Origin: Bilabrum cf. latius
Lineage: Eukaryota
NCBI GenBank assembly: GCA_965178125.1
Contig: OZ237740.1
Location: 434,001 to 498,000, forward strand
Length of the DNA: 64,000 bases
Direction of reading: 5' to 3'
The notes beneath the pieces were generated by a model. That model was not told where the DNA came from. It worked only from the letters and a program-made list of their open reading frames with translations, and made no database searches. A program made the position numbers and the translations under genes. Shown in pieces: positions 32,481 through 56,128 of this stretch. How positions within the stretch are numbered: the stretch's first letter is position 1; each line of letters opens with the position of its first letter.

Positions 32481-34099
32481 TGTTATCCGCCAAAATGTGG
32501 AGTTATGATAACTCTATTTCTACTATATAGTAGAAATAGAGTTTACTTATATAAAAACTACACACATTTTGGCGGATAACATAAGAGGTCAATATTAACC
32601 ACTTCACAACATCTTAAGCCGTAGTCCTTCATAATGTCCTTCACTTGAACATAATAATTTAATAGCTATTTATTCATATATCTACCTAATTTAATACCTT
32701 CGCGCCGTTAATGTCTATCTGTTAGACCTTTACTTTACTTAATCTGTTGAGTGAATCCCTAGCCTAAGTCTTAGGATATGCCCGCCCGAAATTGCGGAAA
32801 TATATAGTCATTTAAGAATATATGTTCGCAATTCTGGGCGCGTAGGTGTATTGAGTTTTATATTATGATTTGGTTTTAAGTATCAATTGACATTTACCAC
32901 TTTAGAAAATAACTAAATAAATACTTAAAGAGATTGACAGAAGTATTAAAGTCTTTTTAATACTTCCAATGAAAAATTTAAATTAATAAATAAAACTAAA
33001 CTAATATATCAACTTAATTTATCTCTTTTTTTATTACTTGTCAATCTATACTTAAATAATTGAATATTTAAATTTAACTAGAAGGAGATATTAATCACTT
33101 TATAAAGTCTTTTATATGTCATCTCTTCAAAACTTCAAATATAAGGGTATCCCCTTAAAAATACATCCTTTAATCTATCGCCCGAAATTGCGGTAATATT
33201 ATAGCTATTCAAGATATATTTTCGCAATTCTGGGCGCGTAGGTGTATTGAGTTTTATTTTTCATAATTCTTTAAATATGTTTAAGTCCTTTGTTTGAGTA
33301 TATGATATAAAGGAATACAAAACGGGATAACTTAAAAATGATAAATATTTTGACGATGACTTTAAAATGATAAATATTTTGACGATAACTTAAAAATGAT
33401 AAATGTTTTGACGATGACTTTAAAATGACTCAATGAACTGGTTTATGTCAAGTGTATTACTTTGAAATGATTAATCACTAGATTAAATGGAAAATATAGG
33501 ATAATTAAATATGGTATAGTATAATACTAGCGCCCGAAATTGCGGTAATATATTAGGATATTAAGATATATTGTCGCAATTCTGGGCGCGTAGGTGTATT
33601 GAGTTTTATATTTTGTTAATTTTGACATAGTTATCTTATAGAGGTGTAATTTTGTAATAAAGATATTTCTAGTATGTGCTATATTAAATGTCCAGAAATG
33701 ACGGCCCGAAATTGCGGAAATATATTAGGATATTAAGAGATATTGTCGCAATTCTGGGCGCGTAGGTGTCTTCAATAATTAATAATCAACTACTTCTTTA
33801 TTTTGATTAATTTTTTTGACTTACCGTTCATTTTATTGACCACTTAACGGGATATCACAAAAAGACTTAACCACTTGACGAGATATTTTAAAATAACTAA
33901 TAATAAATATGACCGCCCCAAATTGTATCTCCAGATATGACCGCCCCAAATTGTATCTCCAGATATGACCGCCCCAAATTGTATCTCCAGATATGACCGC
34001 CCCAAATTGCGGAAATATATAAGTATCAAGAAAATTATGTTTGCAATTCTGGGCGCTCACCCGTATTCAATTTTACATATTCACTAACTCATACCACTT
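32481..34099 (+). repeat. Left terminal inverted repeat (1619 bp)
   Basis: Reverse complement of 54566-56128, with two extra copies of a 28-bp unit (atatgaccgccccaaattgtatctccag). Contains five 58-bp dyads and a ~29-bp x3.5 array at ~33330-33430. Confidence 0.95.
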
Positions 34100-34298
34100 G
34101 AAGTGGTCCATTTGATCTTGTGTTCATATTTAGAATGTCCTTTAACTTGTATCAATGTATTGAGTACTTCTTCTAACTAGTCCTTAACAAATGATTTTGT
34201 CTTATGATATGTCTTGGTAGTCTTCACCTATTTAATAACTAATTTACAAGTCTTACCGACAATATACTAAGTTAATAAATCTTGTATCATAATATATT

Positions 34299-34706
34299 AT
34301 GTATGAGATAATTATTGATGGATTCAAATATAAACCCTCTACTCGTAGAAATAAGAAATATGATGTATTCAAAAATGGTAAGTATATCACTAGCTTTGGT
34401 GATGCACGATATGCTCAATACTTTGATTTGATTGGTAAGTATGGAGATAATAACCATATTGACCCTAAAAGACGACGCCTATACTACCGAAGACACGGGA
34501 AGACTACCGATACTAATAGCTCAAAATATCACAGTCATAAAATCTTATGGGGAAGTGATAATGCTATTAAGGACTACTTAACAAAACTAGCCAATGGAGT
34601 ATTAGATGTAAAAAGGTATGTTAAAGGGGATACTTTGGAAAAATGGTTAGATGACTATAGGTCTAAAGTGGACGCAAGACTGAAACAATTAAAAATATTA
34701 AATTAA
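34299..34706 (+). CDS. Tlr6F-like protein (virophage/Polinton/Tlr family)
   Basis: PSTRRNKKYDV...SFGDARYAQY...HIDPKRRRLYYRRH...ILW pattern typical of Tlr6F; TAA stop. Confidence 0.75.
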   Translation: MYEIIIDGFKYKPSTRRNKKYDVFKNGKYITSFGDARYAQYFDLIGKYGDNNHIDPKRRRLYYRRHGKTTDTNSSKYHSHKILWGSDNAIKDYLTKLANGVLDVKRYVKGDTLEKWLDDYRSKVDARLKQLKILN

Positions 34707-34863
34707 AAAGTCAATACGCCTACGCGCCCAGAATTGCGAAAATATATCTTGAATAGCTATAATATTACCGCAATTTCGGGCGCCCAAATTTGAATCGAGC
34801 TTAAGACATCTCGTTTAATTAGACTTAAAAATAATATATTATTATAGTATATACTATATTATA

Positions 34864-35397
34864 ATGTGCTATAAATGTCGTAACTTCATAATCAATAAGC
34901 TAAAGATTAATGACTGGAATAAGATAGCCCCTCTATTAATACCAGCTGGAGAGACTAGAGAAGAAGACGGAAAGTGTATCTGTGATCACCAAATTAAGGA
35001 AGTTCATTTCGTTGAGTATCCCCCAACTGGTGATATATTTAAATTAGGTTCTGAATGTATTAATAACACATTCGAAAAGGATCATGATGTGTATAAGGCT
35101 TGTATGTATAAGACTTGTGATGTATGCTCTTGTGTTGTTAAACGTAGTAGCTGGAAAAGTCATATTAAATCCATTAAACACGAATTAAATAAAGACATAT
35201 TAAAAGATAAGAGTAGATGCACTGATTGCGATGAGTTCATTGAAAAACATAAATATAAAAAGACTTGTCTTAGTTGTTATAATAAAAAGAGGAAATACTC
35301 ACAATGTAAGAAATGTGAAAAGTATCTTATTAAACCAGGAGCCACTTTCTGGTTTTGTTATGACTGTAACTAGAAGAGAAAGAAATATAAGAAATAA
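34864..35397 (+). CDS. Cys-rich zinc-ribbon/zinc-finger protein (177 aa)
   Basis: Multiple CxxC pairs and a C2H2-like CDVC...H...H. Extends through TAG 35371 to TAA 35395. Confidence 0.75.
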
Positions 35398-35437
35398 TGT
35401 TTAATTTACGCCAACATATTATATCGTCTTTATATAT

Positions 35438-35671
35438 ATGTACGACTTGAAAATTATAATGTCTCCCAAGTTTTTAAAAGCTTGTAAAAATAATAAAGTT
35501 ATTGAAAAGGCTATAAAAGCTATTGAAGACAATTTAAAAGATGAAATTAAATTATGTTTTGATGGCAATGAGTGGGATATGTCAAATGGATCATAGACTC
35601 TTTTTTATAATCTTCAAAGTAAAGAAGAACGAGAAGAAATATTAAAGAAAAATGGAACAATTACAACATAA
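35438..35671 (+). CDS. Small hypothetical protein (77 aa, 1 TAG)
   Basis: ATG follows the CGCCAA...TATATAT motif; open to TAA with TAG read through. Confidence 0.5.
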
Positions 35672-54020: not shown

Positions 54021-54050
54021 TCTAGTATATACTATACTAAAGATAATTTT

Positions 54051-54263
54051 TTAAGTCATTTTCTAGACGCACTATTTTGGCTTAAAGGATTGAGATGGAT
54101 TTTCGCGCACAACTAGAGTATTTTTAAATTTTTCAATTTCTGCTGGGGATTTCCCGATTAGTAAATAACTTATAGTCTCTTGAAACTCTATTGGTAAGTC
54201 TTGTAATTGATGTATTGGTTTATTGATAACTTGATTATTTGATTTGGTATCTATTAAATCCAT
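54051..54263 (-). CDS. Small hypothetical protein (70 aa)
   Basis: ORF 54263-54072 extends through two TAGs to TAA. Confidence 0.5.
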
Positions 54264-54295
54264 TATTAATAATACTATAATAATAGAATATATTT

Positions 54296-54505
54296 TTAAG
54301 TCTTATTTAATCCTTCTGTATCTGGTTCATCCTTAACCTGTTTTCTCTTCTAATAGTACCCCTTCCATTTCTCTTGATTCTTTTGGTAATATTTCTATTT
54401 AGCTTTTTTAATAGCTTCTTTCTTTTTGGTCTCCTATTCCTTGAGTCTTTGATAATCTTCCATAATGTCTTGAACCTATTTTAATACATCTTTAATATCT
54501 GGCAT
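54296..54505 (-). CDS. Small basic coiled-coil protein (69 aa, 4 TAG)
   Basis: MPDIKDVLK*VQDIMEDY...KKAK*KYYQKNQEKWKGYY*KRK to TAA; absent from the standard-code track. Confidence 0.6.
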
Positions 54506-54565
54506 TACTATAGTAATATACTAGATAAATCTTTAAGTTTTTTAAACTAGAAAATGACTTAAAAT

Positions 54566-56128
54566 AAGTGGTATGACTTAGTGAATATGTAAAATTGAAT
54601 ACGGGTGAGCGCCCAGAATTGCAAACATAATTTTCTTGATACTTATATATTTCCGCAATTTGGGGCGGTCATATCTGGAGATACAATTTGGGGCGGTCAT
54701 ATTTATTATTAGTTATTTTAAAATATCTCGTCAAGTGGTTAAGTCTTTTTGTGATATCCCGTTAAGTGGTCAATAAAATGAACGGTAAGTCAAAAAAATT
54801 AATCAAAATAAAGAAGTAGTTGATTATTAATTATTGAAGACACCTACGCGCCCAGAATTGCGACAATATCTCTTAATATCCTAATATATTTCCGCAATTT
54901 CGGGCCGTCATTTCTGGACATTTAATATAGCACATACTAGAAATATCTTTATTACAAAATTACACCTCTATAAGATAACTATGTCAAAATTAACAAAATA
55001 TAAAACTCAATACACCTACGCGCCCAGAATTGCGACAATATATCTTAATATCCTAATATATTACCGCAATTTCGGGCGCTAGTATTATACTATACCATAT
55101 TTAATTATCCTATATTTTCCATTTAATCTAGTGATTAATCATTTCAAAGTAATACACTTGACATAAACCAGTTCATTGAGTCATTTTAAAGTCATCGTCA
55201 AAACATTTATCATTTTTAAGTTATCGTCAAAATATTTATCATTTTAAAGTCATCGTCAAAATATTTATCATTTTTAAGTTATCCCGTTTTGTATTCCTTT
55301 ATATCATATACTCAAACAAAGGACTTAAACATATTTAAAGAATTATGAAAAATAAAACTCAATACACCTACGCGCCCAGAATTGCGAAAATATATCTTGA
55401 ATAGCTATAATATTACCGCAATTTCGGGCGATAGATTAAAGGATGTATTTTTAAGGGGATACCCTTATATTTGAAGTTTTGAAGAGATGACATATAAAAG
55501 ACTTTATAAAGTGATTAATATCTCCTTCTAGTTAAATTTAAATATTCAATTATTTAAGTATAGATTGACAAGTAATAAAAAAAGAGATAAATTAAGTTGA
55601 TATATTAGTTTAGTTTTATTTATTAATTTAAATTTTTCATTGGAAGTATTAAAAAGACTTTAATACTTCTGTCAATCTCTTTAAGTATTTATTTAGTTAT
55701 TTTCTAAAGTGGTAAATGTCAATTGATACTTAAAACCAAATCATAATATAAAACTCAATACACCTACGCGCCCAGAATTGCGAACATATATTCTTAAATG
55801 ACTATATATTTCCGCAATTTCGGGCGGGCATATCCTAAGACTTAGGCTAGGGATTCACTCAACAGATTAAGTAAAGTAAAGGTCTAACAGATAGACATTA
55901 ACGGCGCGAAGGTATTAAATTAGGTAGATATATGAATACATAGCTATTAAATTATTATGTTCAAGTGAAGGACATTATGAAGGACTACGGCTTAAGATGT
56001 TGTGAAGTGGTTAATATTGACCTCTTATGTTATCCGCCAAAATGTGTGTAGTTTTTATATAAGTAAACTCTATTTCTACTATATAGTAGAAATAGAGTTA
56101 TCATAACTCCACATTTTGGCGGATAACA
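54566..56128 (-). repeat. Right terminal inverted repeat (1563 bp)
   Basis: Matches the left TIR except for the 56-bp copy-number difference and isolated substitutions. Confidence 0.95.

Follow-up and report, generated by a model that had tools for sequence, protein, structure and literature searches.

The 64,000-nucleotide stretch analyzed here (the window) covers positions 434,001 to 498,000 of contig OZ237740.1 in assembly GCA_965178125.1 of Bilabrum cf. latius, and its positions 32481-56128 are very probably the integrated genome of a mavirus-like virophage, a small double-stranded DNA virus whose genes are written with TAG as a glutamine codon. The element is 23,648 bp long and has a GC content of about 30% inside flanks of about 60% (0.28-0.35 across 33-56 kb vs 0.56-0.65 on either side in the composition of the window). 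An earlier reading of the letters (here, the original prediction) had described an integrated element with an integrase and a primase-helicase whose genes all become open once TAG is translated as Gln, and this description holds. What appears to be new is a virophage-type genome and a host that share the rare TAG = Gln code. It is not a new category, as the integrated elements of Streblomastix strix already show the use of the host code by integrated viruses.

Insertion site and termini

The element starts with TGTTATCC and ends with GGATAACA, with TG..CA termini on terminal inverted repeats (TIRs). The outer TIR arms (32481-33953 and 54656-56128, 1,473 nt) are 100% complementary, and the repeats resume past a 9-nt gap for another 137 nt at 99% (33963-34099 and 54566-54702). 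A 5-bp target site duplication (TSD) lies directly outside both ends, and a paralogous host segment in the same window is uninterrupted at the corresponding place. In this segment, 17885-18120 corresponds to the left flank (99%) and 18116-18415 to the right flank (100%), the two matches overlapping by exactly 5 bp. The three-way alignment reads CCCCG-TCGGC-GGCAAA without interruption in the paralogue, with one TCGGC at each side of the element. This is a pair of filled and empty sites in its classical form, and the perfect TIRs together with the empty paralogous site would fit a recent insertion.

32476-32480, TSD, left copy (TCGGC, 5 bp), directly outside the left end
32481-34099, plus strand, left TIR, starting TGTTATCCGCC, with five hairpin repeats and short tandem repeats
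32481-32581, plus strand, terminal fold-back palindrome of 101 nt, mirror copy at 56028-56128
54566-56128, minus strand, right TIR, ending GGCGGATAACA
56129-56133, TSD, right copy (TCGGC), directly outside the right end
18116-18120, empty insertion site, TCGGC present once, uninterrupted in the paralogous host segment

The element's own integrase would have joined both ends into the host DNA, because the element codes for a DDE integrase with intact catalytic residues and shows TG..CA on perfect TIRs, a 5-bp TSD and an empty target. An assembly chimera, in which a free virophage genome was misjoined to host DNA, appears extremely improbable, although the public sequencing runs lend it three observations. 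Flank contigs of runs X2 and X5, among the matches listed, show the empty configuration; run X1 contains the element and not the host flank past 56675; and element contigs are far deeper than flank contigs. Moreover, no contig bridging the filled junction is found among the matches listed, so the insertion rests on the assembly itself; this result and the empty flank contigs are points against integration at this site, although missing coverage of this kind is no proof. However, a misjoin does not explain the precise 5-bp duplication of a target that is uninterrupted in the paralogue, nor the exact TG..CA ends on both sides. The empty form is also expected in X2 and X5 because a paralogous copy exists at 17.9-18.4 kb, and the reads therefore neither confirm nor contradict the filled junction. 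The ratio of element to flank depth (about 1,150-1,300 vs 183 in X2, about 500 vs 180-195 in X5) could point to many copies or to free genomes but was not taken as evidence of either, because word depth in contigs does not measure copy number, the flank itself is duplicated, and a bias between 30% and 60% GC is possible.

The 101-nt terminus, folded as single-stranded DNA, reaches -33.3 kcal/mol (z = -11.8), with 0 of 200 shuffles as good. The terminal 19 nt recur inverted 82 nt inward, flanking a perfect 34-nt palindrome (32481-32581 and 56028-56128), and the whole may be a telomere-like or integrase-binding structure. The terminal 19-mer had 0 matches in IMG/VR, and no convincing gene was found in the left TIR (32481-34099). 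Tandem repeats of 29 nt and 28 nt are present in this repeat at 33326-33428 and 33907-34037 and mirrored in the right TIR; at 55204-55263, the copy in runs X1, X2, and X5 is shorter by 58 nt, which is two repeat units.

TAG as a glutamine codon

The genetic code was assessed with open reading frames (ORFs) of at least 100 amino acids (aa) in the interior of the element (34100-54560), reading each stop codon as sense in turn. Such ORFs cover 27.3% of the interior in the standard code. Coverage rises to 81.6% if TAG is translated and to 38.5% if TAA is, whereas translating TGA leaves it at 27.3%. In 50 shuffled sequences translated through TAG, coverage averaged 2% and never exceeded 6.6%. Over 22 ORFs and 5,762 codons, we counted 84 in-frame TAG, 144 CAA, and 8 CAG, that is, TAG makes up 36% of the Gln codons of the element and CAG is almost replaced. 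TAA closes 17 of the ORFs and TGA the other five; TAG closes none. The full-length genes ending in TAA or TGA that the original prediction described from reading through TAG only are thus found. The element shows the features of an NCBI table 15-type code, with TAG in frame at Gln positions and no gene ending in TAG.

The meaning of TAG was then read from homologs. TAG was masked as X, and the proteins were aligned with 13 distant integrase homologs, 35 distant homologs of the major capsid protein (MCP), and the primase-helicases (PrimPol-helicases) of 80 metagenomic loci, kept out of 200 confirmed. These loci are essentially standard-code, because only 2 of the 80 show a stop within the match. 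The 36 TAG sites collect 1,069 aligned residues, 245 of which are Gln, 7.2 times the background, followed by Asn with 1.4 times. With substitution frequencies learned from the same alignments, the log-likelihood of the assignment is -2895.6 for Gln and -3121.4 for Lys, the next. In the PrimPol-helicase, TAG codon 580 is Gln in 79 of 80 homologs, codon 355 in 70 of 78, and codon 435 in 31 of 80; in the integrase, codon 187 is Gln in 8 of 14 and codon 457 in 7 of 15. Only 3 of the 93 conserved PrimPol-helicase columns have a Gln consensus, and both conserved columns that bear a TAG are among them, for which simple arithmetic gives a chance of about 0.0007. The examples given by the original prediction are all present (integrase codons 308, GNPQSNG, and 457, LQK; PrimPol-helicase codons 27, WQ, and 580, QQLNR).

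Two results speak against this assignment. When each TAG site is counted once, the lead of Gln is reduced to 2.7 log-likelihood units (-99.78 vs -102.48 for Arg), and TAG codon 680 of the PrimPol-helicase is Leu or Ile in 74 of 80 homologs. Many other TAG sites are in variable columns. Judged on these alignments, Gln is the best-fitting meaning of TAG. A reading of TAG as Leu, prompted by helicase site 680, was rejected, because Leu does not rank among the six best-scoring assignments and Gln is what both conserved TAG columns show.

With only 27% of the interior in standard-code ORFs of 100 aa or longer, the element looks like debris when read in that code, and it makes a clean annotation example. 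The expectation that standard gene callers would miss it failed, as the protein collection that we searched contains full-length, read-through versions of the MCP, the integrase, and the primase-helicase.

Capsid and morphogenesis genes

Four genes in the order ATPase-protease-penton-MCP (44722-49573) form the morphogenesis module.

44722-45789, plus strand, presumed packaging ATPase with P-loop, 355 aa, 6 TAG (weak Pfam match and locus homology)
45809-46357, plus strand, presumed cysteine protease, 182 aa, 3 TAG (weak Pfam match and conserved motifs)
46718-47644, plus strand, penton (minor capsid) protein, 308 aa, 5 TAG (PDB sequence matches)
47687-49573, plus strand, double jelly-roll MCP, 628 aa, 6 TAG (Pfam, PDB, and Foldseek)

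The MCP is of the virophage type both by sequence and by the fold of its model, as had been proposed. It matches the Pfam family PF22031 (MCP_V20_C) with 30.4 bits (cut-off, 27) and the PDB entry 6g45 with an E value of 1.2e-15, and a profile of its family (38 members) reaches 6e-158 with 6g45 and 6e-40 with the Sputnik V20 protein 3j26. An AlphaFold model built on the 38-member alignment has a pLDDT (AlphaFold's per-residue confidence score) of 74.7, and Foldseek places the mavirus MCP first (E, 1.4e-36; TM [fold similarity] score on the target, 0.78) and Sputnik afterwards (E, 1.6e-24). Among structure models of the BFVD, named virophage MCPs take ranks 1, 3, and 4, and the best-placed named entries come from Qinghai Lake virophage, Cafeteriavirus-dependent mavirus, and Sissi virophage. 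The protein is nevertheless only about 20% identical to that of mavirus, and its next relative beyond its own small cluster is 32% identical. In IMG/VR, a single MCP gave no pattern match, and an alignment of seven sequences gave 18 pattern matches, none of them confirmed. The penton protein, also proposed earlier as a virophage gene, has sequence matches in the PDB to 6g41, a minor capsid protein (E, 4.8e-13), and to 3j26_N, the minor virion protein of Sputnik (E, 4.7e-5); its single-sequence fold is unusable (pLDDT, 32.9), and it is identified by sequence.

The other two genes were assigned with less certainty than the MCP and the penton protein. Their Pfam matches are below the cut-offs and count against the assignments (AAA_10 with E 1e-5 and AAA_22 with E 1.3e-5 for the ATPase, Peptidase_C57 with E 0.004 for the protease), and the protease had no match among PDB sequences. 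Homology to metagenomic loci points the other way: Walker A, Walker B, and GRH of the ATPase align with the ATPase genes of loci L002, L008, and L016 (E for L002, 2.4e-13), and the GH, DSYG, Q, and TCGR motifs of the protease are kept in ORFs of L002, L007, and L009 (E, 1.6e-12 to 3.4e-11). L002, the only one of these five loci that was annotated, carries Sputnik-type MCP and penton domains. The ATPase is placed where an FtsK/HerA-type (A32-like) packaging ATPase would be expected, and the protease would be the counterpart of the adenain-like cysteine protease of virophages. The earlier identification of both as virophage genes is thus backed by their likeness to metagenomic loci, including a virophage contig, and is not confirmed by Pfam, and we regard them as a presumed packaging ATPase and a presumed cysteine protease.

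Integration and replication genes

35758-37413, plus strand, rve (DDE) integrase with C-terminal chromodomain, 551 aa, 12 TAG (Pfam)
51222-54020, minus strand, fusion of PrimPol (AEP, archaeo-eukaryotic primase) and helicase, 932 aa, 11 TAG (PF09250; E, 8.9e-14)

The integrase matches PF00665 (E, 8.9e-8) and the chromodomain family PF00385 (E, 4e-7). Its catalytic triad is conserved, D217 and D280 being invariant in 16 of 16 homologs and E314 being present in 15 of 16. The PrimPol-helicase keeps as invariant residues D57, D59, H100, and D121, GxGKT at 324-328, and DE at 400-401, which are the DxD/H/D signature of the primase and the Walker A and B motifs. We were unable to identify a protein-primed DNA polymerase B (pPolB) domain with Pfam in the 20 ORFs scanned, a tyrosine recombinase was not found in the element, and the element encodes no RNA polymerase. 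Replication may thus proceed by way of the PrimPol-helicase and the 101-nt fold-back hairpin at each end, with no protein-primed polymerase involved.

Genetic code of the host

The original prediction had inferred a code-15-type host, and the host ORFs adjacent to the element do carry in-frame TAG. The host frames of 1,058 to 1,101 codons contain no TAA or TGA and three to five TAG each, with 43 to 45 off-frame TGA. Of seven host frames inspected, six stop at TGA and the seventh at TAA. The gene that adjoins the insertion is an example.

28853-32158, minus strand, host MACPF-domain gene, 1,101 open codons, 3 TAG (PF01823; E, 3.4e-10)

This gene stays open for 680 codons beyond a TAG at codon 420, and its paralog at 13393-16698 has a TAG where the 28853-32158 copy has Gln (column 846). 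Host frames with in-frame TAG and a Gln/TAG difference between paralogs argue that the host reads TAG as sense, most likely as Gln. This assignment has its weaknesses, as it is drawn from a few ORFs with no known homologs and with introns possible, and ARAGORN found no tRNA genes in the 64-kb window and therefore no Gln-tRNA(CUA) there. An Rfam scan of the window gave nothing. The flank ORFs are long and GC3-rich, and TAG makes up about 7 to 9% of their Gln codons vs the 36% of the element.

This difference in TAG usage would be expected if the recoding were the virus's own, as in code-15 phages, with a standard-code host in which TAG is suppressed only during infection. TAG-recoded phages in standard-code hosts are well documented in the excerpts of the literature available to us. 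We consider this very unlikely here, because neither the element nor the window has a tRNA gene, host ORFs of more than 1,000 codons contain three to five TAG and no TAA or TGA, and the host paralogs differ by Gln vs TAG. Since the neighboring host genes carry TAG, the simplest mechanism for a virophage sharing the code of its host would be that host ribosomes translate the viral mRNAs and decode TAG as Gln, probably by means of a host Gln-tRNA(CUA) and a changed release factor. Under A+T mutation pressure in the virus, CAG could then have drifted to TAG at no cost.

Other copies and selection

Other copies were looked for in reads and assembled sequences, as the original prediction had suggested. 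Of the words sampled from the element's right half, at least 85% are present in each of six public runs, which come from two studies and bear two organism labels; one further run under one of the two labels has none of them. No RNA run was among the runs listed as carrying the element. A further copy is present on a 48.6-kb contig represented in the protein collection, with an integrase that is 4 residues off and identical MCP and primase-helicase, and relatives at 76 to 88% identity appear there on short contigs.

Compared with the dominant copies in the public runs X1, X2, and X5, the element shows about 130 substitutions in 20 kb. Our counts for selection use the 40 listed of these approximately 130 substitutions, 35 of which are coding, with 22 synonymous and 13 nonsynonymous. 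The listed differences are synonymous in 9 of 9 cases in the 240-aa ORF, 6 of 6 in the ATPase, and 2 of 2 in the MCP, a pattern typical of genes maintained by selection in the frames read with TAG as sense. Directly upstream of the ATPase, the 173-aa ORF at 44055-44576 has 7 nonsynonymous changes among its 10 listed differences, with only synonymous ones in its neighbors; it is either a fast-evolving gene or no real gene.

The alternative of a decaying provirus, in which the TAGs are nonsense mutations from CAG to TAG in dead genes, can draw on the near absence of CAG (8 codons) and the frequent TAG, as C-to-T decay would give. We give it next to no credence. The 5,762 codons contain 0 TAA and 0 TGA vs 654 TAA and 434 TGA in the other two frames of the same 22 ORFs, the TIRs are 100% identical, the catalytic residues are intact, the listed differences between copies in the core genes are mostly synonymous, and a TAG occupies a near-invariant Gln of the helicase.

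Comparison with known systems

The element resembles mavirus and the endogenous mavirus-like elements (EMALEs) of Cafeteria burkhardae in its low GC content relative to a GC-rich host, its TIRs and short TSD, its rve integrase, and the order of its morphogenesis genes. In the available parts of Hackl et al. (2021, PMC8547959), the TSD is 5-6 bp for mavirus and mostly 3-5 bp for EMALEs, the ATPase-protease-penton-MCP order is that of mavirus and EMALE types 4 to 7, and mid-GC EMALEs have no pPolB and a long primase/helicase, as the present element does. The features of EMALEs that we find are thus the rve integrase, the TIRs, the short TSD, and the integration in a host chromosome, and the pPolB is not found. 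The best PDB matches of the MCP (6g45) and of the penton protein (6g41) are those of mavirus, the mavirus capsid structures being 6g41-6g45. The differences are TAG as Gln, an MCP so distant from that of mavirus, and the lack of a detected tyrosine recombinase, to which we can add the 1.6-kb TIRs with fold-back palindromes and, possibly, the 22 hairpin repeats.

L002, the metagenomic contig of a Sputnik-type virophage, has a PrimPol-helicase that is 31% identical and shares with the element the rve-chromo integrase, the ATPase, the protease, and the C terminus of the 147-aa protein. It differs in being standard-code and in having an MCP and a penton protein of the Sputnik Pfam families, its MCP being barely alignable with that of the element (E, 2e-5 over 196 aa). 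At 6076-7899 of L002, regions similar to the protease and to the integrase are in one 607-aa ORF, which may be a protease-integrase fusion.

With Polintons/Mavericks, the element has in common the rve integrase with chromodomain, the TIRs, the ATPase, the protease, two capsid genes, and, according to what is cited in the available text of Hackl et al. (2021, PMC8547959), a TSD of 5-6 bp. In contrast to them, it has no pPolB in the 20 ORFs scanned, and its capsid proteins are closest to those of virophages.

Regarding the code, the integrated viral elements of Streblomastix strix use the TAA/TAG = Gln code of their host, which is taken as a sign of long association in the accessible portion of Bellas et al. 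(2023, PMC10120064). They are, like our element, integrated, capsid-encoding DNA viruses in the variant nuclear code of the host. Going by the same portion, both TAA and TAG are Gln there, the MCPs belong to a "Metamonada group" together with Trichomonas elements, and the host is an oxymonad, whereas the present element has TAG alone reassigned and a mavirus-like capsid. The full texts of the literature searched (supplements being outside the coverage) contain no description that we could find of a virophage with a reassigned stop codon, and the Streblomastix elements (Bellas et al. 2023) are the closest case. The UAG-only code has a counterpart in Iotanema spirale, in which UAG is Gln, UAA and UGA are stops, and UAG makes up about 8% of the Gln codons (vs the approximately 7 to 9% in the host ORFs here); the excerpt of that article at hand mentions no virus (Panek et al. 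2017, PMC5304391). Giant-virus metagenome-assembled genomes that are best read with alternative codes are already cataloged, according to the part of PMC13524828 that we could consult.

Possible helper dependence and lineage

Membership in the capsid family is what would suggest that the element depends on a giant virus. The capsid could instead belong to an autonomous integrating virus or transposon of the polinton-like or Maverick-like kind, with no need of a giant virus, which we consider unlikely. The window shows no giant-virus sequence, which weighs against a helper and leaves room for autonomy, and the element encodes its own integrase and primase-helicase. Its PrimPol-helicase family is widespread on metagenomic contigs, and the 80 loci kept of 200 gave no tblastn match to the MCP or the penton protein at an E value of 1e-5. 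In addition, "virophage" has been argued to be a lifestyle and not a natural group in the section of PMC13215967 that was available. However, the MCP and the penton protein match those of mavirus and Sputnik and not those of polinton-like groups, and there is no protein-primed PolB. The shared short upstream motifs and the lack of an RNA polymerase of its own would be expected if the transcription of a helper were used.

Virophages are translated by the host cell. With TAG standing for a third of its Gln, the mavirus-like virophage that we favor would therefore be expressible only in cells that read TAG as Gln. A code-compatible helper virus would be a reasonable supposition, and the code would bind the element, together with any giant virus that it exploits, to hosts of one lineage whose nuclear code is very rare. 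This offers a concrete way to track down such a giant virus and to ask if the code change isolates the host from foreign viruses.

A more far-reaching proposal, which we regard as possible but doubtful, is that the element belongs to a live virophage lineage of a UAG-only-Gln protist and is not a fossil, that its helper giant virus also reads TAG as Gln, and that the hairpins and fold-back ends are cis-signals for the transcription and replication machinery of this helper. There are weak signs of movement or replication, namely, the occurrence under two labels and in two studies, the absence from one sample, a depth that varies relative to the flank, and the mostly synonymous differences. If this proposal is true, host, giant virus, and virophage would be locked together by one variant code.

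Hairpin repeats and upstream motifs

32784-55825, imperfect palindrome of about 56 nt in 22 copies (GCCCAGAATTGCG, about 30 nt, CGCAATTYSGGGC)

The arms of this palindrome have 43 matches, all within 32784-55825, vs 0.01 expected by chance. Ten copies are in the TIRs and 12 are intergenic, mostly directly 3' of stop codons and including the space between convergent genes. The RNA fold shows a stem, with z = -2.7 for a 147-nt context. The repeats could be transcript-end or regulatory signals, and the fold-back ends of the element could be replication or integrase-binding structures. A search of IMG/VR with the hairpin-arm pattern hit 19 contigs, each of them once, and we took these hits as chance. 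Several genes have in common an upstream block ending ACTATATATATAG, directly before the ATG. A promoter-like 28-mer was rejected as a general signal, having only 3 matches in the window.

Remaining ORFs of the element

34299-34706, plus strand, DUF5754-like protein, 135 aa, 0 TAG (PF19058; E, 5.9e-6; 26.7 bits, cut-off 27.4)
34864-35397, plus strand, Cys-rich ORF, 177 aa, 1 TAG (no Pfam family)
35438-35671, plus strand, 77-aa ORF, 1 TAG (ORF call)
37644-38324, plus strand, 226-aa ORF, 4 TAG (ORF call)
38344-38850, plus strand, 168-aa ORF, 0 TAG (ORF call)
38963-39277, minus strand, 104-aa ORF, 2 TAG (ORF call)
39434-40072, minus strand, P-loop protein (GSGKST), 212 aa, 7 TAG (weak AAA_18 match; E, 0.004, below cut-off)
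40116-40838, minus strand, 240-aa ORF, 1 TAG (purifying selection between copies)
41082-42524, minus strand, charged protein, 480 aa, 5 TAG (weak SAP match; E, 0.004)
42564-43007, minus strand, basic protein, 147 aa, 1 TAG (C-terminal 45 aa match ORFs on L002 and L008)
43042-43860, plus strand, 272-aa ORF, 5 TAG (no Pfam family; weak matches on L007 and L009)
44055-44576, minus strand, 173-aa ORF, 3 TAG, fast-evolving if a real gene (see above for its differences)
49761-50183, plus strand, 140-aa ORF, 3 TAG (ORF call)
50809-51159, plus strand, 116-aa ORF, 2 TAG (ORF call)
54051-54505, minus strand, two small ORFs, 70 and 69 aa, 2 and 4 TAG (ORF call)

Homologs of the DUF5754-like protein are present on 10 of the 80 metagenomic loci.

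Surrounding host sequence

The host region is a tandem duplication with a unit of about 15 kb (12300-25000 vs 28400-32480 plus 56129-64000), and the virophage is only in the second unit. Each unit contains a MACPF gene, the paralogs being 96% identical at the protein level, and an ORF of about 1,058 aa that belongs to no known family. The first 3,400 nt of the window (1-3400) have 40% GC and resemble neither the host flanks nor the virophage, and none of the codes tried opens a long ORF in them. They are followed at 4600-10200 by about 5.5 kb of tandem repeats with a 55- to 56-nt unit, 68% GC, and an AT skew near -0.89, in which all six frames are open and the plus-strand frames give Pro/Cys/Ser-rich repeats; only the first host unit has this block. 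Tandem arrays with a 70-nt unit (12364-13503 and 28384-28893) and with a 67-nt unit (22094-22862 and 60082-60783) are conserved between the two host units.

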